Below are positions 18,364 to 54,993 of a DNA stretch of 64,000 nucleotides, in pieces. The notes below the pieces were generated by a model. That model saw nothing but the letters and a program-made list of their open reading frames with translations, had not been told where the DNA came from and made no database searches. The number at the start of each line of letters is the position of its first letter. The first letter of the stretch is position 1. The stretch is from an uncultured Chloroflexia bacterium (GTDB taxonomy: Bacteria; Chloroflexota; Dehalococcoidia; GIF9; UBA5629). The stretch lies in contig OY970123.1 of the NCBI GenBank assembly GCA_963705905.1, forward strand, positions 839,921 through 903,920. The letters are read 5' to 3'. The position numbers and the translations under genes were made by a program.

Positions 18364-18530
18364 ATTCAGTCGCCTGCGGCCGTTAAATAGCCTGAACGAG
18401 TCAAGACGGGTAAAGTATACGCCTTGATCAGACGGCTATCCAGTTCTCGGTGGGATCGGCTGGCTGACCGAATACAACCCACAGCCGAATCAACATATAT
18501 GGGAATATAGGTTTTTGGGGCATCAAGGCG

Positions 18531-18752
18531 ATGCTCGACCAGTTAGGTGTCGAGACAGGCTTAACCTGTAACCCTCACACCTTTAGGCGCAAGTTTGCGG
18601 TGCTGTTAAGGAAGGCCGGTGTAGATACCATGACTATCAAAGAATTCGGTCGATGGGAGAGCTTGGAAATGGTACAGCGATATACCAGATCATTCAGCTT
18701 CCAGGATAGTATGAAGTTTTATAAGTCGCCTTTAGAAACATTACTTGATTAA
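18531..18752 (+). pseudogene. tyrosine recombinase/integrase C-terminal fragment
   Basis: 73 codons ending with HTFRRKFAVLL...GRWESLEMVQRYTR, the box II/catalytic Tyr region of phage integrases. The N-terminal ~300 codons are absent (only 167 nt separate it from the radical SAM start). Confidence 0.6.
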
Positions 18753-19076
18753 TATACTGGGTCTTGATACATCAAAATTGTTCAGGGCATTCTAATGGAG
18801 ACCACCCACAAGTCTTTGAAGAGTAAAAAGGCCGGCTTGAGTAGGTCTCTTCCTTATTCGCTTTGCCAGATTTAAGTTTAGATTTTGAGACAAACTGGAA
18901 TTGAGTCTCTTGTTTCATGGGATAATTTGAACATGGATTTATATTACCGTAGAGCCATAACCAGTAACATATATTCTGTTTATCACACAATAGTAATCAA
19001 CCTCCCATCATTAACCGCATGTATTATACACCTATGCACAACCGATGGGAATAGGGTTTCGACATATCCCTATTCT

Positions 19077-19150
19077 TGGAAATGGTACAGAGGTATACTC
19101 GTTCTTTCAGCTTTCAGGATAGTATGAGATTTTACAGATCACCGCTTTAA
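19077..19150 (+). repeat. second, diverged copy of an integrase 3-prime end
   Basis: About 75% nt identity to 18664-18745; encodes EMVQRYTRSFSFQDSMRFYRSPL-stop. Preceded by a perfect 8-bp-stem hairpin gaataggg-tttcgacata-ccctattc at 19050-19075. Confidence 0.5.
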
Positions 19151-19261
19151 CGTATGTCATTCTCACAACGCTGTGAATAGCATTTCTGGGACGTAAAGCT
19201 TGGCAGGTGGGTGAATCCAGTGTTATTGTCATTACAGTTAGCGTTATATATGGTAGGGCAT

Positions 19262-19540
19262 ATGGGGGATATGATGCCGGAGTTGAATAACTACTGTCCA
19301 GAATGCTATCAGAATATCCAGTACGGCATACAGAAATGCCCATATTGTGGATGTCCGATTAATTGGGGGATACCGCCGCAAGAGATAGTCCAACCACCGG
19401 TGCATATATCGCAGCAACAGGCAGCTGCATCGAAAAGAACCGGAGGGGGTATCATATGTGTTCATTGTGGCAATTCAATAATACCTGTAAAAAGCAATTT
19501 TGGTTGTGTTTTTTTAATTTGTTCGGCATCGTTTACTTAA
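19262..19540 (+). CDS. small zinc-ribbon protein, possibly continued by ORF 19363-19602 through a T7 frameshift
   Basis: CPECY...CPYCGCP ribbon, then CVHCG. A second frame encodes a TM helix and CPVCKKK; the frames meet at a t7 run near 19483. Confidence 0.3.
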   Translation: MGDMMPELNNYCPECYQNIQYGIQKCPYCGCPINWGIPPQEIVQPPVHISQQQAAASKRTGGGIICVHCGNSIIPVKSNFGCVFLICSASFT

Positions 19541-19847
19541 TTTACTATGCCATCAAAAAAGCCGATATTTGCCCTGTATGTAAGAAGAAGGCCTACAAAT
19601 AGCCCTGGGGAAAAACCTTTGTTTAGCCAACCATATAAACAGTGGCAACTGGCACAAAGGTAAGGGTAGATTGGAAATATGCCAAGAAAAACAATCTCCG
19701 CTATATGCAAATATTGAGCTATTTTATGAGAGCTTATCTCAAATTGCTTCTGTCTGGGGTTTGGTGATTACATTGGGGAAGGCAATATGTCGATTTCAAT
19801 GTGAGCGGTAAAATGGGGAATTCATTCCGGACTTGATAGCGTCTGGT

Positions 19848-20852
19848 TTATCTATATGGGTTAAGGTCTACTTTGTATACAGCATCGGTAATCTCAGAAA
19901 GCTTTTGCTCAAACTCAGCGGCTGTCGGCTCTTTCAAATCTATGTGCTTCAAATCCTTCAGTAGTTCTGGCTTTTCACAGTCATCCACTAATATGGGTAT
20001 GACTGTGAATTTCTCGTTTAAGGCTTTTGCAAGTGCTGTGTTCATCTCTTTGGTGCACCAATCTGATGAACTGTAACGGCTCTCAAGAAGTATCAAGCAA
20101 GCATCACATTCCTTAAAGCCTTCTCCTATTTTGCCCACCACTGAATCGCCAGCTTTAATCTCCCATTTATCGAACCACACTTCCATCCCCTGCTCTGACA
20201 ATCGCTGTGCAATAGTATCTGCTACTTGCTCCGCTTTGCTCAACTTCTTGTAAGATAGAAAAACTTTGTGGCCTCTAGGTCTTTGGCCTGGCTGACCACT
20301 TATAGCCCTTATCCTATTTGCTAAGTCTTCCCATGCTTGCTTCTTGACCCAGGAAGCAATATTACTCACAACAAGCTGCTGCGACCGAGATAAGGAATCC
20401 CACGATATGTCTACTTGACTTATCTGACCTGGTGCCGCTTGAAAGGCATAACGGATGCTCAGTTGACTGGGCATTCCTATAGGTGGCTTAGTCAAATAAT
20501 GAACTAAGATTTCATCAATGGTAGGCACAATTTTTAGAGACTCGCGGTTGTCCACATCTATCTCGTACGATCGTAAGAGCGGAGCAACCACTTTCTCCAA
20601 AGTCCCCAACTTTTGGCAAATTTCAAGCGGCAATTGTGTCCAGTCAGCCAACCTGATGCGCCCAGATAATTGAACAACGTCAAAGAAATTCCCATCATCT
20701 TCCTGGGTTAGCGGAGTATAAAATATGTTTAGCTCATTCTGTCGCCCAGCCCAACTTCTTATATAGAAATTGTACCCAAATTCCAGGTCTAAGATTCTCC
20801 TAGACGAAGCAGCCTTCCTACTCTCCACCGAGCCTGAACTTCCTGAACTCAT
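19848..20852 (-). CDS. TIR-domain protein with uncharacterised ~190-aa N-terminal domain
   Basis: C-terminal KVFLSYKK ... DACLILLESRYSSSDWCTKEMNTALA ... IPILVDD matches the TIR beta-A, catalytic-Glu and beta-D regions; N-terminal half has no motif I can assign. Confidence 0.75.
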   Translation of the reverse strand: MSSGSSGSVESRKAASSRRILDLEFGYNFYIRSWAGRQNELNIFYTPLTQEDDGNFFDVVQLSGRIRLADWTQLPLEICQKLGTLEKVVAPLLRSYEIDVDNRESLKIVPTIDEILVHYLTKPPIGMPSQLSIRYAFQAAPGQISQVDISWDSLSRSQQLVVSNIASWVKKQAWEDLANRIRAISGQPGQRPRGHKVFLSYKKLSKAEQVADTIAQRLSEQGMEVWFDKWEIKAGDSVVGKIGEGFKECDACLILLESRYSSSDWCTKEMNTALAKALNEKFTVIPILVDDCEKPELLKDLKHIDLKEPTAAEFEQKLSEITDAVYKVDLNPYR

Positions 20853-21070
20853 CTTTCAAAGTTCCCGTTATATAGCTACATCATGCAGATCGTGCTTTAA
20901 AACTTCCTGTATTATACTGCTGCTAATGTTGTGTTATCCATTAAACTATCCGTCAATTTATATAATTGTTAGGGTAACTTAATATAGAGAATGTGATATT
21001 TACCCATTTTAACTGAGGATAGATCGTTATTCCTTATTAGGGTGGTCCATATAACTAAGCAGGATTATTG

Positions 21071-21625
21071 CTATCTATTAAGCCACGGGCAACTATTGAT
21101 GGGCAACTGATCATAGAATTCTGCAAATGACGGGCTGTTGTTTTTTATATGGCCTGCTCTACATTTAACCAGGAGATCAACACCATCTGTTGTCTCATGA
21201 TACATTCGCAAATGTTTCTTAATGACAGTTTTGCCTTTACGACCTTCATAACTAATTGTTATTTCCTTCACTTTATATTCACACTGGTTAACAATTTCTC
21301 TGTCAGCTAAAATCCAGTTCTCGATCGTCCGGTCAGTCACTCCAATGATGATAGTATCTACTATTCCCAGTTGCTCCAGTAGAGAATGGAGCGAAGAGGA
21401 TATTTCCTGTGATGTTTCTCGCCGATCCTCCCTGTCAATTACAACGATAATTGGATAGTATCTGTTATTAAAAAGTCTGCAATGGGTCTCAATACGTTCT
21501 GCAATTGCCGATAGCGACACATTGTGGCCATTACACTCAAGTCTTTGCACAGGACGGCCAGGACACGATTTTTGAATAAACTTCTGTTCAAGGTGTCCGT
21601 CGACGAGAAATGCCGCTTTATTCAT
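21071..21625 (-). CDS. Toprim-like small protein (DUF4276/RloB/AriB-type partner)
   Basis: 184 aa; LVDGHLEQKF (h-x-EG-x-x-E) and IVVIDREDRRE acidic motifs as in OLD-family Toprim domains. Start overlaps the upstream ATPase stop by 8 nt. Confidence 0.55.
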   Translation of the reverse strand: MNKAAFLVDGHLEQKFIQKSCPGRPVQRLECNGHNVSLSAIAERIETHCRLFNNRYYPIIVVIDREDRRETSQEISSSLHSLLEQLGIVDTIIIGVTDRTIENWILADREIVNQCEYKVKEITISYEGRKGKTVIKKHLRMYHETTDGVDLLVKCRAGHIKNNSPSFAEFYDQLPINSCPWLNR

Positions 21626-22973
21626 TGTTCAAGCTACCAGATAGATAGTAATAGCCTAATCCAAAACCAGTTTTCTGTATCTCTTTAGTTAGGGCTGCGG
21701 CATTAGAAACGCGTTTAGCTGTCGTTTTTCCATTAGCACAAGAGATAACGATGATTTCCTTTGGTACCGCATTATTTAGTAAGGTCTCACTATGCGTGGA
21801 CATAAGGATGAATCTATCTTTTTTCATGTGCTCCCGCATAATCAATATTATTTCAGATAGCATATGTGGATGAAGATAATTCTCGGGTTCCTCAATAGCG
21901 AACATATTTTGATTTGTTAAAATGATTGTTATCAATGCTATCCATTTCACTGTACCATCCGACATGGAAGAAAGAGGGAGTATAGTGGGCTTACCGGTAC
22001 CTTTTAGAGTAACTCGAACCTGCAATTGCTGGTCAAATGGATTGTTCGAAACAACGATATTAGATATCCATTCGTTTGCAAGCTGCGTGTATCGCAAAAT
22101 ATTTGCTGTAGAAGCATCACTTCTGGGGATTGCATGCCGATAGGTTGGCAGATACCTATAGGTTGGCAGATAATCGTACTTTTGCCGGTTGACGCCCTCG
22201 TATTTTTGTATCGCGTACAATGTCGAATATAAACCAGAGCCATCTTTACTGACACCTGCTTTTTTAGCACTATCATCTGGCATCTTTGCTTTAGATGGTT
22301 CAATGTTATAGACTTCACCACCTCTGATGTCATTATTAATGGGATAATAGAAGTCACGAATAATCATACTCAAGACAGTAATGACGCTTTGGTCTGGATC
22401 CAGGTTGTCGAGATATTGTATTATCCTTCTTTTAATATCCGCTTTACCATATTTACGTCTCGCATCATAAGGATTATTTAATTCCTTTATTTTTTCGTTG
22501 ATAGCGGAGATTGTAGGCTTGGATTTTGAATTATCATCTACATTTAACGCAATTGCTAAATCGTAATCGCTACTTCGTATCTTGTTTATAGAGTCGACTG
22601 CTCTTAGTTTTAACGATAACTTTTGTTCCGAATAAATTATTGGCTCTCCAGATACGCGTAAAAGTATTCTGAACGAATATTGATAGTATAAATACTTTCT
22701 AGCCTCAAGTTTCACCGTGCCAGTTATCGTTGCACTGATGTTATCCTGATATTCTTTTTCTCCTATTTTCCGAAATATAGTACCTGCACCTCCAGATTTA
22801 CTGATGGCATCTGAAATATGCATATACTGGAGATAACCGAGGAATTCGAAAAAAGAAATAATATTTGTCTTGCCTGATCCATTGGGTCCAACAAGGATAT
22901 TTAGACCCGATTTCAGATCCATTTCGAATTTATGAAGAGTCTTGAAACCGTTTACTTTAATATGTTTAATCAT
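21618..22973 (-). CDS. split ABC-type ATPase (AAA_21/AAA_15 family; OLD/AbiLi/AriA-like)
   Basis: Walker A GPNGSGKT near the N-terminus, long insert, then IEEPENYLHPHM and H-loop LMSTHSE at the C-terminus; 451 aa. Confidence 0.8.
   Translation of the reverse strand: MIKHIKVNGFKTLHKFEMDLKSGLNILVGPNGSGKTNIISFFEFLGYLQYMHISDAISKSGGAGTIFRKIGEKEYQDNISATITGTVKLEARKYLYYQYSFRILLRVSGEPIIYSEQKLSLKLRAVDSINKIRSSDYDLAIALNVDDNSKSKPTISAINEKIKELNNPYDARRKYGKADIKRRIIQYLDNLDPDQSVITVLSMIIRDFYYPINNDIRGGEVYNIEPSKAKMPDDSAKKAGVSKDGSGLYSTLYAIQKYEGVNRQKYDYLPTYRYLPTYRHAIPRSDASTANILRYTQLANEWISNIVVSNNPFDQQLQVRVTLKGTGKPTILPLSSMSDGTVKWIALITIILTNQNMFAIEEPENYLHPHMLSEIILIMREHMKKDRFILMSTHSETLLNNAVPKEIIVISCANGKTTAKRVSNAAALTKEIQKTGFGLGYYYLSGSLNNE
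22139..22174 (-). repeat. in-frame 18-bp tandem duplication inside the ATPase gene
   Basis: tatctgccaacctatagg / tatctgccaacctatcgg encodes YLPTYR YLPTYR. Confidence 0.6.
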
Positions 22974-23340
22974 TTAAAATTCCCGAAGAACCTATATTCG
23001 TGTGCATAATTACCATAATATTCGATATTATATCACTGTGTCATTGCGGATTACAGTGTATATTTTATCATTTGTAGTCATAGATTCGAATCAGGTTTAA
23101 CCTTACTAAGCTGCTCAAGCACTACTAATATCCTTATAGAAACCTGATTCCTTCAAGGCTAAGGCAATATTAAGGGTAAGAAGCCGGGGCATGACTGGGC
23201 AGTCCTTAGCTTAGATTATGAAAGGAAAAGGAAGCCAAAGAAGACTATAAAATAGTTAAGCAAATAATTACGATGGGGATGAAGCTAAAGTGTTAAGCAA
23301 ATCAGGAAAACTCAGCAATCAACGCAATCGTGGATTGAAG

Positions 23341-23416
23341 TGGTGCCCCCAAGGGAATTCGAATCCCTGTGTCCAGCTTGAAAGGCTGGTGTCCTAGGCC
23401 TCTAGACGATGGGGGC
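23341..23416 (-). tRNA. tRNA-Glu (anticodon TTC)
   Basis: Reverse complement GCCCCCATCGTCTAGAGGCCTAGGACACCAGCCTTTCAAGCTGGACACAGGGATTCGAATTCCCTTGGGGGCACCA; anticodon loop CTTTCAA, acceptor GCCCCCA/TGGGGGC, encoded CCA. Confidence 0.9.
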
Positions 23417-23422
23417 ATTGAA

Positions 23423-25100: not shown

Positions 25101-26389
25101 CTAGCGCTCCACTACCATGGCAATGCCCATGCCGCCGCCGATGCACATGGTCGCCAGGCCGTGTTTAAGGTTGCGGCGCTCCATCTCATGCACCAGCGTT
25201 ACCAGCACACGCGCGCCGGTGGCGCCGATGGGGTGCCCCAGTGAAATGCCGCTGCCGTGTACGTTGGTCTTATCCAGGTCAAAACCCAGCTCTTTAACAC
25301 ATCCAAGGGCCTGTGATGCAAAAGCCTCGTTGAGTTCGACGACGTCGAGGTCTTTGACCGACAATTTGGCCTTCTCCAGGGCCTTTTGACAGCCGGGACA
25401 ACGCCCAGTCCCATGTAGGCAGGGTCCACGCCGCCGGACGCATACGACTTGATCTTTGCCATGGGCTTCAAGCCCATCTCAGCGGCTTTTTTAGCCGACA
25501 TCAATAATACCGCGCCTGCGCCATCGTTGATGCCGGATGCATTGCCGGCCGTTACGGTCCCGTCTTTCTTGAAAGCCGGCGCCAGCCTGGCCATCTTCTC
25601 CAGCGTGGTCTCCATCGGCCGTTCATCCGTATCGAAAACGACCGGGTCACCTTTCTTTTGCGGCGAGACCACCGGGACGATCTCCTGTTTGAAGGTGCCG
25701 TCTTTACAGGCAGCCAAGGCCCGCTGGTGGCTCATCAGTCCCAGCTTGTCCTGCTCTTCACGCGTGATGCCATATTTGGCAGCGATATTTTCAGCCGTCA
25801 CGCCCATGTGATAGCCGTAGTAAAGTTCCCATAGCCCGTCATAGACCATCAGGTCGAAAACTTCACCTTTGCCCGTCAGGTCCATGCGGTAGCCCCACCT
25901 GGCACGCGTCATGGCATAGGGAGCGTTGCTCATGCTCTCCATACCGCCTGCGACCACGACCTCGGCGTCGCCCAGTAAAATGCTCTGAACCCCGGTAACT
26001 ATCGCTTTGAGTCCGGAGCCGCAAATCTTGTTGACCGTGAAGCCGGGCGTTTCCTTGGGCAGCCCGGCATAGATCATGGCCTGCCTGCCCGGGTTCTGTC
26101 CCTGTGCTGCCTGCAGCACGTTGCCCATGATAACCTCGTCCACCTGGACCTCTTTAAGGTTATCCGGCCAATCATAGTATTTCTGCTCAAGCTCGCAGAG
26201 CCCACCGCCCGCCAGCGCTTTCGGGCCATATTCGGCCAGCCTGGCTCCCGTTTTAGGCCTTAAGCCAGCCCTTTTCAACACATCTTTGATAACGATTGAG
26301 CCCAGTTTGGTGGCAACGACATCCTTAAGCCCGCCGCCGAACGTACCGATAGCGGTCCTTACTCCGTTTACTATGACAACTTCGGACAT
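25101..26389 (-). CDS. acetyl-CoA C-acetyltransferase (thiolase), apparent frameshift in an A4 run near 25395
   Basis: N-terminal 396-aa ORF has catalytic Cys (NKICGSG). The C-terminal part with [15 protein letters not shown] and CIGGGMG is in ORF 25101-25364 in another frame. Confidence 0.85.
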
Positions 26390-45995: not shown

Positions 45996-47365
45996 CTATT
46001 GTTTTGGCTGAAAGGCTTCTATCTTTAAATGACTAATTTTAATCAATTGAAGGACTGCATAATCCTTTTGCATATCAAAATAAAAATCCCCACGAAATGG
46101 AGGATCGATAGAATGATCGATTATTTCATGGCAAGTTGCCATCATAAATGGAATTAACTCATTACAGATACGACAAGGTAGTCCAATTACTTGACCATCC
46201 GGATGCTGCTCCATTACATGTATATAGTAATCACGAATCTCCCCACTAGCGATTAACTCACCACAACTGCATTTCAGTCGACTATTTTTGTCAGCAACGG
46301 TGGCTTCGTTAAGATAATTTGGACCATACCTAAAATCCCATAGCGAAGCCAGTTTGGATTCAGTCTGCCCAGACGTTAGTTGGTAACTCCAATTGCCACG
46401 AGATAAACTCATGCGAAGCGATTTCCAAATGTTCCATGCATTCGGTTTCAAATTTTGTCCAGCCACTTTAGCAGTAAAAATACGTGCGGCAATACCAGCA
46501 GCAAGATCAGCTATCTGGATACCAATCGAACTAGCGGATATTTCTTCAGAACACGCAATAAAATTATGCATCGGCGATGGCGATCTGGATAAAAATTCAT
46601 AAGTAAAATCTAGTATTTCGCCAAATTGGGTGTCCTGATCTCTTATTAATCGAGCCTTTAAATTGTGTGATCCGAGAGCAGAATCCAGAAAAATCAATGA
46701 GGGGAAAAATGCAGTAACCTGACAATTGGACAAATGTATATTTTTAGGAGCGCCTTCTAAACGCTCTCCAAAACGGTAAATATCATCCAACCCAGACATA
46801 ATGACATGGGCTATATGAACGACGCGTTGATCTGGATGCAAACTTAATTGTCTACTAAGAATAAGGCCAATACGTTTAAGCTCGGGAACATCATCGGAAT
46901 GACACGCCCGTAAAAACCTTGTCAATAATTCGCTGGAAATTGATGAATAGATAACATTATGGAAAAAACGCCTGAACTCTATAGACATCATATACCTATC
47001 TACCTTCGGGTTGTGATCGGGATCTAAATAGGTTGAGGCAATCCGGACACAAATCTCAAATTTTTTCTCAACAATACTTATATAGATAGTGGTTCCAGCT
47101 TCATATACTAGCTGCATGATCTTTGACCAACGTCTCCTTCCTCTGGAAGATTGCCATAACTTAACAGAACTCAATTCGTAGGATAGTGGAAGACATTCTT
47201 TCTCCAAAAAAGAGATAGCTGGGATGCAAGTAGAGTTTCTTGATTCTTCGTTAACAACACCCAGGCATATACGAAAAATAAATCAGTTTTAGAGAGTAAA
47301 TCGGAGCCGGTATTGCCGGATTCATCGCAATAGATTGTTGCTATCTCAGCAGTTATAGGCCTCAT
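45996..47365 (-). CDS. DUF3800-family protein with Cys-rich C-terminal extension; apparent frameshift in a T6 run near 47195
   Basis: N-terminal IYCDESGNTG motif in ORF 47171-47365, QIADLAAGIA motif in ORF 45996-47207. Adding one T to tctcttttttgg merges the frames. AT-rich. Confidence 0.5.
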
Positions 47366-47395
47366 ATACAGCGCAAAGTATTAGATGCAAAATAA

Positions 47396-48004
47396 TTACG
47401 ATTTTTGATCATTCGATATGGACTCTAAAAAGCTGGCTAAACTAAGTGCGAGATCCACATAACTGGCAGCTTGTTCCCAAGATATATTGAATTGAGCCTC
47501 ATGAACAGCCTGATTCCGCAGTTTCCGAAGACGATCATACAAGTCTCCAGTTCCATACGGAAGTTCGCCTGATAATGTTAGTTTATGCAATACATCGTGT
47601 TCTGCCTGCATACCCTTCGATGGTATTTCATATTTCAACGCCAATTTCCCTAAAGCATTTTCTACCGAGCGCCAAGCCTCAGCTACTGCGGCTCTAGGAT
47701 AATCATAGGCAAGATCAATTAGATTCTGGGATGGAGAAACAGAGATTTCGATTGGCTGCCTAGCAGATGGCGTTGGAGGCAATTTCAATGCCTTTGCCTT
47801 ATCCTCGGCGAATCTGAGATCACGGCGAAATTTGATTCCCAAATCCTTATAACGCAATTCCTCAATAGCTGCAATAGCTTGGGCAAGTGGTTTCCTAAAA
47901 ATCAATACTATTGTCAGGACTGTCAAAGGCCAAGCTAGTACCGACACGAAATTCAAAATTAAATGTGCAATTCCCATATTAAATCCACAACTTAATAGAT
48001 TCAA
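47396..48004 (-). CDS. membrane-anchored DUF4145 (HEPN-like) protein
   Basis: N-terminal TM helix, C-terminal LRKLRNQAVHEAQFNISWEQA matching the DUF4145 R-x4-H signature. Confidence 0.45.
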   Translation of the reverse strand: MNLLSCGFNMGIAHLILNFVSVLAWPLTVLTIVLIFRKPLAQAIAAIEELRYKDLGIKFRRDLRFAEDKAKALKLPPTPSARQPIEISVSPSQNLIDLAYDYPRAAVAEAWRSVENALGKLALKYEIPSKGMQAEHDVLHKLTLSGELPYGTGDLYDRLRKLRNQAVHEAQFNISWEQAASYVDLALSLASFLESISNDQKS

Positions 48005-48029
48005 ATAATATGACCCGGTAGGTTAAGAT

Positions 48030-48842
48030 TTATATGTTCTCAATTTGATTCGCTGCTTTCGCTAGCTTGTCCTTGGTCTGGCCAAGGTTAACTACGGATT
48101 TTAGATGATTCTGCCTTTTCTCACGAGCGATATACCAGTCTTCAAATAATCTTTCAATCAGACCAATTAGCAATTCCGCTTCATTGGGTTCAATATCTAT
48201 AATAATATCTACCTTTTTTGCCATATGAGCGCCAATATTACCTACCTTGCGAACCGCATCTATCGCATCCCACGTAAGCGGATCCACTTTATCCTGGATC
48301 GCCTCTATTTCTTTTTTTAGAGATGGACGTTCCAGTCCCCAATAATCACGTATCATGCCTTGCAAGCAGCGCCGTGCCAAAGTTGCTGACGATTTCGGGC
48401 TCAATTCTTTGATAAGACATGCCTCCCGATAATCAGCCAAAATAGGGGTGGGTATATAATCAGGAAAAATTTTTGCCCCAGAAGGTGGGACCAATTGCCA
48501 TGTATGCAACTCTTCTCCACTATGAGGTCTTGATCCGCTATAGCGCTCCACCTTAGAAAGACGAATTGTTAAAGTGAACCTCCTACAATCAGGATTTGGG
48601 CAAACGACAAACGCCCAATTTAAACATCGCTCTCCATCGGAATTCTCAATGTCTAAAAATACCTCACCTGTGGTCCTATCTTCATGTGTAACCGTTGTAG
48701 GTCTATTGCAATAAGGACAGGTCCAAGGGAACTTTCTGGTTGCAGGCGGAGGTATCAGGAACCCATTCATAGTTGAATTATACACCATGCGATAATCGAC
48801 AAAAAGATAAAGAATGAATAAAATCAGGATGCTGATAGCCAT
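48030..48842 (-). CDS. zinc-ribbon + DUF4145 (HEPN-like) protein
   Basis: CPYCNRPT...CPNPDCRRF ribbon; DUF4145 core LARRCLQGMIRDY ... AIDAVRKVGNIGAHM. Confidence 0.5.
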   Translation of the reverse strand: MAISILILFILYLFVDYRMVYNSTMNGFLIPPPATRKFPWTCPYCNRPTTVTHEDRTTGEVFLDIENSDGERCLNWAFVVCPNPDCRRFTLTIRLSKVERYSGSRPHSGEELHTWQLVPPSGAKIFPDYIPTPILADYREACLIKELSPKSSATLARRCLQGMIRDYWGLERPSLKKEIEAIQDKVDPLTWDAIDAVRKVGNIGAHMAKKVDIIIDIEPNEAELLIGLIERLFEDWYIAREKRQNHLKSVVNLGQTKDKLAKAANQIENI

Positions 48843-49198: not shown

Positions 49199-50206
49199 AT
49201 GAAGCTCTCCGATTTCGACTACGACCTGCCACCCGCATTCATCGCACAACATCCCCTGGAGCAAAGGGACCATTCCAGGCTGATGGTCGTGGACCGTAAA
49301 TCACATACCATCGAGCACCGTCATTTCTACGATCTCGTAGATTATGTCAACAGCGGCGATACGCTGGTCTTCAACAACAGCCGGGTCATCCCGGCCCGCC
49401 TCAAAGGTATCATTTCCGGCAGCCAGAGACAGGCAGAAATACTCCTGCTGAAACAGCTGTCCCCCGATACATGGGAAGCTCTGGTGAGGCCAGGACGCAA
49501 ATTGTTTCCGGGCTTCAGAATCCTGTTCACAGGCGATCAGTTCGCAGCGATTATAGAAAAAAGAGAAGCAGGGATCAGGATCGTAAGGTTCTCCGACCCC
49601 GAAGGACTGGACAAGCTGGGCGAGATGCCCCTGCCGCCCTATATCAAAGCCAAGCTTCAGGATAAGGAACGCTACCAGACGGTCTACTCGTCCGTTAAAG
49701 GCAGCGCCGCCGCGCCTACCGCCGGGCTGCATTTCACCCCCGAGCTGCTGGACAAGCTGCGCACTAAAGGCGTCAACCTGGCCTTTGTCACCCTGCACAT
49801 CGGGCTGGATACCTTCCAACCTGTCCGCGCCGAAGACCCGTCGCACCATAAAATCCACACTGAGTTCGGCTACGTCGACGAGGAGACCGCGCTGCTGCTG
49901 ATCAGGACCAGGAAAGCGGGAAAACGCGTCATCGCAGTCGGGACCACCTCCGTGCGCTTGATCGAAGCTGCCTCCCAGGCGGGAGAGGTATTGCCGTTCT
50001 GCGGCCAGGTCGGACTTTTCATACTGCCCGGCTACCGCTTCATAACCACCGACGCTATCATTACCAACTTTCACTTACCGAAATCGACGTTGCTGATGAT
50101 GCTCTCGGCCTTTGCAGGACGCGAATTCCTGCGGGATTGCTACGAAAAAGCCAAAGAAACTGGCTACCGCTTCTACAGTTTCGGCGATGCCATGCTGGTA
50201 AAATAG
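49199..50206 (+). CDS. queA: S-adenosylmethionine:tRNA ribosyltransferase-isomerase
   Basis: MKLSDFDYDLP N-terminus and overall QueA pattern; 335 aa. Confidence 0.9.
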   Translation: MKLSDFDYDLPPAFIAQHPLEQRDHSRLMVVDRKSHTIEHRHFYDLVDYVNSGDTLVFNNSRVIPARLKGIISGSQRQAEILLLKQLSPDTWEALVRPGRKLFPGFRILFTGDQFAAIIEKREAGIRIVRFSDPEGLDKLGEMPLPPYIKAKLQDKERYQTVYSSVKGSAAAPTAGLHFTPELLDKLRTKGVNLAFVTLHIGLDTFQPVRAEDPSHHKIHTEFGYVDEETALLLIRTRKAGKRVIAVGTTSVRLIEAASQAGEVLPFCGQVGLFILPGYRFITTDAIITNFHLPKSTLLMMLSAFAGREFLRDCYEKAKETGYRFYSFGDAMLVK

Positions 50207-53934: not shown

Positions 53935-54993
53935 CTATTTGTAAAACCTCAATGATTTAATCTCTTGAATTATTGGCTGTGGCCTTCGCCCGCCACCCTT
54001 GCTCTTTGGGACATGCTTAATGCCAGTGCGTCTTTCCGTTAAGAGCCTACGCTTGTGTAATCTTGAATCAGCCTGTTTCCTTTCCCTATCTGTAAACCTG
54101 ACATATGGCAAAGGTGAAACATCAAACGAAGCTCTTGGCAATGTCAATTTAGCCATTTCGGGAGTGCATCTTATCAATACTTCCCAATCTTTATATGGGA
54201 ATTGTATTTGAGCCTTATTTGCAGGCGTAGTGCCGATCGTTTCATGTGGTCGGAAATAGTTATAATTTACTAGGAAGCCGTCAAGTAGCAACTGCGCCGA
54301 TTCAGGGCTTTTAAGGTCTCTCATGACTTTTGTGCGTTCTTTGATAGTGCCCTGCATCCGCTCGATGATGTTGTTGTTCGGCCTAGCTGTGAATTTCTTG
54401 ACTTGCAAATGCTTTGCTTTGTCTCCAAAGGTATGCCGGATGCCGTAGACATATGCTTCCATATGGTCGGTCATAATAACTTTAGGTATACGACCAGTTC
54501 GAGCATAGGCTTCCTTCATAACCTCGTGGACATCTTCTACTCTGCGAGTCAGAGATAAAAACGAAGCTATCAAGAACCTCGTCTTGACATCAATCACATC
54601 AAGAAGCCAATATTGTTTCCCTGCTACATTTATTACGGTCTCATCGGCTAACCAAACATAACCTACTTCTGGCTTATATCGATTGGTTATATTGACCGCA
54701 TCTTTGGTAAACCTTTCTACCCAGTTATAGATTGCAAAATCGGATAGGTCTAAACCATATATTTGTTTTAGTTCTTGCTTAATGTCATTGACCGACATGC
54801 CCTTGTAAAACATCGAGACCGCCGCCGAGACCGCACTGGCGGGCGTTTTCATGTGGATTAACGCATCTTTAAGATTGAACCTGCGCTTGCAGGATCGGCA
54901 CAGGTAGTATTGCTCACCTACGTTAGTGCCATCCTTCACGATGTCATCTGAATTGCAGTATTTGCAGGCAATCTCGCTCACGAGAAATTCCAT
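53935..54993 (-). CDS. DDE transposase, IS6/IS26-like with N-terminal zinc ribbon
   Basis: CKYCNSDDIVKDG...YLCRSCKRRF ribbon; DDE region WLADETVINVAGKQYWLLDVIDVKTRFLIASFLSLTRR ... VIMTDHMEAY ... NNIIERMQGTIKER. Confidence 0.7.
   Translation of the reverse strand: MEFLVSEIACKYCNSDDIVKDGTNVGEQYYLCRSCKRRFNLKDALIHMKTPASAVSAAVSMFYKGMSVNDIKQELKQIYGLDLSDFAIYNWVERFTKDAVNITNRYKPEVGYVWLADETVINVAGKQYWLLDVIDVKTRFLIASFLSLTRRVEDVHEVMKEAYARTGRIPKVIMTDHMEAYVYGIRHTFGDKAKHLQVKKFTARPNNNIIERMQGTIKERTKVMRDLKSPESAQLLLDGFLVNYNYFRPHETIGTTPANKAQIQFPYKDWEVLIRCTPEMAKLTLPRASFDVSPLPYVRFTDRERKQADSRLHKRRLLTERRTGIKHVPKSKGGGRRPQPIIQEIKSLRFYK

Follow-up and report, generated by a model that had tools for sequence, protein, structure and literature searches.

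A one-gene TIR protein of uncultured Chloroflexota with a fast-evolving orphan N-terminal domain, a putative sensor and effector in a single polypeptide

The minus strand of a 64,000-nucleotide stretch of contig OY970123.1 from an uncultured member of the Chloroflexota (assembly GCA_963705905.1; the whole stretch is hereafter called the window) carries a gene whose product joins an N-terminal domain of no recognized family to a C-terminal TIR domain. On balance, we favor a reading of this sequence in which the protein is a self-contained immune factor, with an infection sensor and an effector that cleaves nicotinamide adenine dinucleotide (NAD+) on one polypeptide. It would then probably be a variant of a familiar type of bacterial anti-phage protein, the single-gene TIR sensor-effector, and not a new kind of system. 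What is new here is the N-terminal domain family, which is confidently folded and without sequence relatives or clear structural relatives. The family itself, likewise new, appears from the sequences searched to be tiny and uniform and to belong to one phylum and one TIR lineage. We also mark as new the rapid evolution of part of the domain and a signature of recombination at its edge.

The gene is an open reading frame (ORF) of 334 codons plus a stop, with exactly the coordinates and peptides that the original prediction had given for it, and its product consists of the orphan N-terminal domain and the TIR domain. An independent assembly of the same organism (L010, on a 2.47-Mb contig) carries an identical copy: over 20.8 kb the two assemblies differ by 10 substitutions and three homopolymer indels, none of them inside the TIR gene. 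The L010 annotation (P0001) begins eight codons later, at the GTG that is codon 9. Some homologues have N-termini that are just as long, and on this comparison we favor the ATG start; the choice touches only a disordered tail. The parts of the gene are listed below, with confidence in the AlphaFold2 (AF2) model given as the pLDDT (predicted local distance difference test) and substitution rates as the ratio of nonsynonymous to synonymous divergence (dN/dS).

19848 to 20852, minus strand: complete TIR gene (ORF list; the same in L010; more than 40 full-length homologues)
20805 to 20852, minus strand: residues 1 to 16, disordered Ser/Gly/basic tail with the alternative GTG at codon 9 (pLDDT below 50 for residues 1 to 13 or 1 to 15; poorly conserved)
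20403 to 20804, minus strand: residues 17 to 150, beta-rich, fast-evolving part including helix 76-92, a candidate recognition surface (AF2 pLDDT of about 90; 46% identity; dN/dS)
20301 to 20402, minus strand: residues 151 to 184, highly conserved WDSLSRSQQLVVSNIASWVKKQAWEDLANRIRAI, the last element of the N-terminal domain before the TIR domain (translation; helix 156-184 at pLDDT 92 to 95)
20271 to 20300, minus strand: residues 185 to 194, Gly/Pro/Gln-rich linker SGQPGQRPRG (no secondary structure, lower pLDDT, variable except for the SGQ motif)
19851 to 20270, minus strand: residues 195 to 334, TIR domain (Pfam TIR_2; PDB chain matches; strand-helix alternation)
20046 to 20048, minus strand: codon of Glu269, which is predicted to be the catalytic Glu of a TIR NADase site and lies within S-x-W-C-T-K-E-M (translation)
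20911 to 20940, minus strand: promoter-like site, TGGATA-18 nt-TATAAT (agrees with the consensus at 10 of 12 positions; overall, the region shows no enrichment compared with shuffles)

The TIR assignment made from the sequence alone is borne out by Pfam TIR_2 (PF13676), which matches residues 197 to 315 over profile positions 1 to 119 of 122 (E value of 3.1e-27; 95.9 bits against a cutoff of 28). The closest solved chains are 7uxr, deposited as "TIR domain protein," and AbTIR (8g83 and 7uwg), with E values of 6e-11 to 2e-9; AbTIR is named an NAD(+) hydrolase by its depositors. In the AF2 model, strands at residues 196-202, 224-230, 251-256, and 283-288 alternate with helices at 206-220, 265-279, and 311-330, and the predicted fold is the flavodoxin-like beta-alpha alternation of TIR domains. 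The BB-loop (233-245) is modeled with low confidence, which would fit a flexible loop. Glu269 lies in the segment SSSDWCTKEM, a W-x-x-x-E motif, and is invariant in 23 of 23 family members. Because DWCTKEM aligns with DWTNYEL of AbTIR (DWTNYELDG), Glu269 stands at the position of the AbTIR glutamate that we take, from the published literature, to be the catalytic residue. Judged by its sequence, this is a canonical TIR domain that probably is catalytically competent. The protein ends, after the last TIR helix, in an invariant D-x-N-P-Y-R motif (residues 329 to 334; 19848-19868) that is found in all homologues and retained even in P0055, the most divergent member. This motif is modeled with low confidence; an interface and an autoinhibitory tail are both possibilities.

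The original prediction described residues 1 to 190 as a domain, and this holds in substance, with the correction that the folded part runs only from about residue 17 to residue 184, residues 1 to 16 being disordered. AF2, given residues 1 to 193 and a 20-sequence alignment, returned a model with a mean pLDDT of 86.3, a predicted template modeling score of 0.79, 10 strands, and two helices (strands at 20-30, 40-50, 56-58, 64-68, 96-101, 104-108, 110-119, 130-137, and 140-148; helices at 76-92 and, much longer, at 156-184). Given this confident fold and the conservation of the region in more than 40 homologues, at 37 to 70% identity, we take it on the model to be a real folded domain and not a linker. 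The 29-residue final helix falls within the conserved stretch of residues 151 to 184 (WDSLSRSQQLVVSNIASWVKKQAWEDLANRIR), where W151, L154, S155, S157, Q159, L160, N164, W168, K170, W174, L177, and R182 are invariant. Two ideas about the domain were dropped. The isoelectric point ranges from 4.4 to 9.6 across the family, and since net charge is thus not conserved, a generic nucleic-acid-binding role is disfavored; an internal duplication of two beta-alpha halves was rejected, as hhalign found no similarity between them.

The region had also been called unassigned, and it stayed so across the sequence and fold libraries searched. Residues 1 to 193 have no Pfam match, whether queried as a single sequence or with all 20 members at E values up to 10, apart from scattered single matches with E values above 0.1, and they have no match in NCBIfam, PADLOC, or PHROGs. 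Among PDB sequences, searched by phmmer and by profile, no relative of these residues was found (best E value of 0.29). The structure-based search that had been proposed as a check, run with Foldseek on the AF2 model against the PDB and the BFVD collection of viral structures, identified no characterized domain: nothing in the PDB reached an E value of 1e-3, and the best match in BFVD had an E value of 3e-3 with TM scores of 0.40 to 0.45. The platform of a beta-sheet and two helices may bear a weak resemblance to the alpha1-alpha2 platform of proteins like class I of the major histocompatibility complex (MHC). The original prediction had named clear homology to a known domain, such as SLOG or STING, as the result that would make this a known architecture; neither these folds nor SAVED, CARF, or APAZ were recognized in the domain among the libraries searched.

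Relatives of the domain were all found within its own family. A word-indexed search of 5.8 billion clusters returned 22 N-terminal-domain relatives, and a search anchored on the helix and the TIR domain added further members, such that at least 150 residues of the domain are present in 41 proteins besides that of the window; with fragments, the family comprises about 45 clusters. All full-length members share the same architecture of N-terminal domain and TIR domain, at about 316 to 335 amino acids. When 1.84 billion cluster representatives were searched exhaustively with an HMMER profile, nine matches came back, all of them family members or fragments, and a second search with a profile broadened to include the most divergent members (P0028, P0051, and P0055) found no new architectures. 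The N-terminal domain of the most distant member, P0055, is 20% identical and is collinear by hhalign (E value of 4e-4 over 130 columns). The next TIR relatives (P0056-59) carry the TIR domain at the N-terminus and an unrelated C-terminal domain; kinship of the latter in P0056-58 with the N-terminal domain studied here was considered and rejected (hhalign probability of 0.3%). Among 185,579 species-representative genomes, two encode the N-terminal domain, one a Dehalococcoidia metagenome-assembled genome (MAG) and the other a Chloroflexia MAG.

We asked how the parts of the gene have diverged, using pairwise Nei-Gojobori estimates across 11 genes, restricted for dN/dS to pairs with dS below 2. 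The N-terminal domain divides into two portions, of which the second resembles the TIR domain in its conservation:

Residues 20 to 150, beta-platform: mean pairwise identity of 46%, dN/dS of 0.19 to 1.13
Residues 151 to 184, conserved helix: mean pairwise identity of 76%, dN/dS of 0.06 to 0.33
Residues 195 to 334, TIR domain: mean pairwise identity of 73%, dN/dS of 0.04 to 0.22

In the six closest pairs, dN/dS of the beta-platform is 0.33 to 1.13, and all six show an excess of nonsynonymous over synonymous differences in the platform relative to the TIR domain (odds ratios of 2.2 to 6.8; P values of 2e-7 to 0.03). The window protein and P0002 differ chiefly within residues 17 to 150. Between the window gene and its homologue in L001, the proportions of nonsynonymous and synonymous sites that differ (pN and pS) are about equal over residues 1 to 150, with 54 nonsynonymous against 14 synonymous differences (window 20403-20852 against L001 6888-7337 for these first ~150 codons). 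In sliding windows along the same pair, pS rises about threefold near residue 150, from ~0.16 to ~0.53 (P value of 2e-7), and in four of the six close pairs, this one and three others, the first ~150 codons lag about threefold behind the rest of the gene in synonymous divergence. The jump in pS near codon 150 suggests recombination near the boundary between platform and helix. The simplest reading of these sequences is that the platform then diversifies fast at the amino-acid level on a constant chassis of helix, linker, and TIR domain. Such a contrast in rates is what an arms race would be expected to leave on a recognition surface.

The gene also stands alone. We read 11 independent genomic contexts, that of the window and 10 others, and no partner gene recurs across them, which answers the survey of the homologues' partner genes that had been proposed at the outset. 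The neighbors are as follows:

Window: HEC-01-like gene pair, integrase remnants, tRNA-Glu
L001/L002: MmeI-like type IIG restriction-modification enzyme, M78 peptidase
L014/L009: ORF of 731 amino acids, read from its sequence as a putative DNA methyltransferase
L017: OLD-like ATPase-TOPRIM gene (OLD-like nuclease) 3 kb away
L019: integrase, two IS110 transposases, DUF3800
L003/L004, L005/L006, L013, L015, and L018: housekeeping genes (MiaB-like/QueA, folate synthesis/MgsA, MutL)
L007: genes mostly without annotation; a HicAB toxin-antitoxin pair is close by

In eight of nine loci the GC content of the TIR gene is 5 to 14 points below that of its surroundings. Upstream gaps of about 110 to 220 bp hold a -10 box, TATAAT mostly with TG before it, and the box takes the form TGGTATAAT or TGATATAAT at a similar upstream distance in L004, L005, L007, and L013. 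In the window, the upstream region that the original prediction had ascribed to this gene is a real gap of 218 bp (20853-21070) with the promoter-like site inside it. That prediction had also supposed that the gene may be expressed independently of the ATPase/Toprim pair next to it; since the pair is limited to the same organism, 10 contexts lack it, and -10 boxes recur, independent expression is well supported by the sequences compared. Altogether, the low GC content relative to the flanks, the -10 boxes upstream, and the position of the window gene in a low-GC island beside a tRNA gene suggest that the TIR gene behaves as a mobile single-gene cassette.

That island spans ~18.5 to 23.3 kb of the window, with a GC content of 0.37 to 0.43 against ~0.52 to 0.58 in its flanks. 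It abuts (window 18400-23420) the 3' end of a tRNA-Glu(ttc) gene (23341-23416, minus strand), while its far end holds a C-terminal integrase fragment (18531-18752; Pfam Phage_integrase, E value of 6e-10) and a second integrase remnant of 69 nt that is 81% identical (19075-19143). By its appearance this is a tRNA-integrated island in decay, and a search for an att direct repeat came back empty. The pair next to the TIR gene consists of an ABC ATPase of 451 amino acids (21618-22973, minus strand; AAA_21/AAA_15; PADLOC HEC-01A, E value of 3e-43) and a DUF4276 protein of 184 amino acids (21071-21625, minus strand; HEC-01B, E value of 6e-7, under the Pfam cutoff), whose genes overlap by 8 nt. We consider this pair (21071-22973) a candidate defense pair of ATPase and TOPRIM-like protein, HEC-01-like and MADS3/4-like. 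HEC-01 is itself a two-gene candidate of ATPase and TOPRIM-like protein with no TIR component, and it gave no protection in E. coli assays.

A published parallel is SpbK (YddK) of the Bacillus subtilis element ICEBs1. This TIR NADase works from a single gene: its N-terminal domain binds YonE, the portal protein of phage SPbeta, and docking on the portal gathers the TIR domains into a filament that is active (PMC12847820). Like SpbK, the window protein is a single polypeptide with an N-terminal non-TIR domain, a flexible linker, and a C-terminal TIR domain, and both genes sit on mobile DNA with no obligatory partner. SpbK supplies the likely working model, in which docking of the N-terminal domain on a multimer of a phage protein would let the TIR domains cluster into an active NADase. 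The two differ, however, in the N-terminal domain: residues 1 to 94 of SpbK form a four-helix bundle, and a SPARTA TIR is reported as the structure closest to SpbK (PMC12847820), whereas the window protein has a predicted alpha/beta platform of ~170 residues with no detectable relationship to that 94-residue bundle. Furthermore, the PDB sequence matches to the window TIR domain are led by AbTIR-type chains and include none from SpbK or SPARTA. By analogy, then, the window protein plausibly works like SpbK while lying outside the SpbK family. The AbTIR-type NADases (7uxr, 8g83, and 7uwg) are the closest TIR sequences of solved structure, align through the Glu region, and likewise have a non-TIR N-terminal region; those regions are coiled-coils according to the literature, whereas a globular beta-rich domain is found here, and identity is limited to the TIR core.

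Thoeris offers another comparison, since ThsB proteins sense a capsid protein (PMC11312562) and the window TIR protein would probably respond to phage structural proteins as well. It has weak PADLOC ThsB matches, but these cover the TIR domain only and fall far under the family cutoffs, and a ThsA effector (SIR2 or Macro/transmembrane plus SLOG) was found neither in the window island nor in the 10 other contexts. The best PADLOC match is PDC-S66 (E value of 1.9e-16), also a single-gene candidate with a TIR domain in its C-terminal half; only profile positions 139 to 240 of 282 align, with residues 185 to 287, and the first 138 positions are not aligned with the N-terminal domain. TIR-SAVED, TIR-STING, CARF-TIR Cat1, the TIR-APAZ of SPARTA, and the SLOG of ThsA share with the window protein the logic of a sensor fused to or paired with a TIR domain.

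We infer the sensor role of the N-terminal domain because it evolves faster than the TIR domain, because the gene has no partner, and by analogy with SpbK. In uninfected cells the TIR domains would be held inactive in a monomeric or a non-productive dimeric state. A cue specific to infection, with a multimeric structural protein of the phage as the likeliest candidate, would be bound by the fast-evolving beta-platform, and this binding would cluster the protein so that modules of helix, linker, and TIR domain assemble head-to-tail. The assembled TIR domains would form composite active sites around Glu269 and cleave NAD+ to ADP-ribose (ADPR) and/or a cyclic ADPR isomer, and depletion of NAD+ would abort the infection. 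The NADase activity, the part in defense, the kind of trigger, and the activation through oligomerization are likewise inferred.

Several observations weigh against this scheme. An NAD+-depleting TIR and one that makes a signaling nucleotide are indistinguishable from sequence, and the elevated dN/dS of the platform could reflect relaxed constraint. About half of the contexts are plain housekeeping neighborhoods and not defense islands, and all family members come from uncultured Chloroflexota. In the profile searches the N-terminal domain was never found alone and never joined to another effector; it is therefore not demonstrably a modular sensor, as the signature of domain shuffling is absent.

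One alternative, which we regard as unlikely, is that the protein senses infection as a Thoeris-like signal generator and mainly makes a cyclic ADPR-type messenger for an effector encoded elsewhere. The closest solved TIR domains are of the AbTIR type, and AbTIR-type TIRs make isomers of cyclic ADPR. There are, moreover, sub-threshold matches to the PADLOC ThsB models and to the NCBIfam model for ThcB4 of Thoeris type III, and the authors of the SpbK work raise a possible unlinked receptor for N1-cyclic ADPR. However, no ThsA-like, SLOG, Macro, or SIR2 gene adjoins any of the 11 loci, the ThcB4 match scores 46.6 bits against a cutoff of 220 and is limited to the TIR region, and a lone low-GC cassette is ill-suited to a two-component system. 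We give a similarly low chance to the N-terminal domain being mainly a scaffold for oligomerization or autoinhibition, or a small-molecule platform, in which case the trigger would be a metabolite, nucleotide, or signal of general stress. Consistent with this, its best-conserved part is the TIR-adjacent helix with its many invariant polar residues, the domain is strictly co-inherited with one TIR lineage, the N-terminal region of AbTIR-type proteins is a coiled-coil in the literature, and the weak resemblance to a platform of beta-sheet and two helices would permit a ligand groove. Yet a scaffold would be expected to be conserved, and the beta-platform shows dN/dS of up to ~1 at 46% identity; the helix, for its part, lacks the heptad pattern of a coiled-coil and is amphipathic and modeled as packed on the sheet.

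The housekeeping-only neighbors of about half of the loci, along with confinement to one phylum, could also be explained if the protein had no part in defense and were a lineage-specific NAD+-metabolizing or regulatory TIR protein of the Chloroflexota or a selfish, toxin-like gene. We consider this improbable, given the anomalously low GC content, the variable insertion sites, and the occurrence in elements bearing integrases or insertion sequences (IS); the gene also adjoins restriction-modification, OLD, and HEC-01 genes, and one of its domains evolves fast, all of which speaks for horizontal mobility and diversifying evolution and is atypical of a housekeeping enzyme. Far less credible is a three-gene system in which the TIR gene is the third component beside the ABC ATPase and DUF4276/TOPRIM-like genes (21071-22973). 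These genes do share a strand and a low-GC island, and no terminator-like site was found between them. The pair, however, was seen next to the TIR gene in this organism's own assemblies alone (contigs L010-L012), and none of the 10 other contexts contains it; a promoter-like site lies in the 218 bp that separate it from the TIR gene, and HEC-01 is described without a TIR component. We reject this system, which the context survey brings close to refutation. A bolder reading, to which we assign a slim chance, would make the N-terminal domain a new fold family of two helices on a beta-sheet, an analogue and not a homologue of the MHC platform. The direct ligand of its hypervariable platform or inter-helix groove would be a peptide or protein derived from a phage or, acting as an autoinhibitory plug, the D-x-N-P-Y-R tail of the same protein. 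It would then form a new class of prokaryotic pattern recognition under diversifying selection, with modules recombined onto a constant chassis of helix and TIR domain.

Other features of the window were noted along the way. In the low-GC island, two overlapping small ORFs with CxxC pairs (19211-19602, plus strand; a weak Pfam double zinc ribbon match, E value of 1.7e-4) are flanked by the integrase remnants on one side and by the TIR gene's 3' end on the other, and the frame switch suggests a frameshifted or decayed gene for a small zinc-ribbon or membrane protein. The ATPase gene contains a tandem duplication of 18 nt (22134-22169; 89% identical) that gives the ABC ATPase a doubled peptide, YLPTYR-YLPTYR, in its insert region. 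A second low-GC patch (45996-48842, minus strand; GC content of ~0.39 to 0.41) holds three ORFs on the same strand: two, of 403 and 202 amino acids, have no Pfam or PADLOC match, while the third encodes a DUF4145 protein of 270 amino acids that matches the PADLOC single-gene defense model PD-T7-4 (E value of 4e-10). This patch lies just upstream of QueA (49199-50206), and since the TIR homologues of L003, L004, and L013 occupy the same MiaB-like/QueA neighborhood, that neighborhood may be a variable hotspot. A third low-GC patch contains an IS transposase (53935-54993, minus strand; DDE_Tnp_IS240/rve with an InsA-type zinc ribbon). Finally, the window differs from L010 by single-base length differences at ~25387 and ~24333, both in A-runs, and at ~11468. 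The one at ~25387 splits a thiolase gene into two ORFs (25199-26389 and 25101-25364) where L010 has an intact gene of 429 amino acids, and the one at ~24333 shortens the start of ArgC; all three probably arose as errors of sequencing or assembly and do not mark true pseudogenes.

How bacterial TIR proteins sense infection is known in few cases, among them SpbK with the portal and Thoeris with the capsid. Extra domains without annotation are frequent in TIR proteins, and the architecture itself is unsurprising; should the N-terminal domain not be a sensor, this would be one more such protein. What the family adds is a compact one-gene TIR protein whose non-TIR domain evolves fast and has apparently recombined at the domain boundary, a solid lead toward a new recognition module, albeit in hosts that are difficult to handle. 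Were the domain a sensor, it would constitute such a module and a small, tractable model of trigger-induced TIR assembly, and it would widen knowledge of defense to the Chloroflexota, the Dehalococcoidia among them, in which the biology of phages and hosts is almost unexplored.

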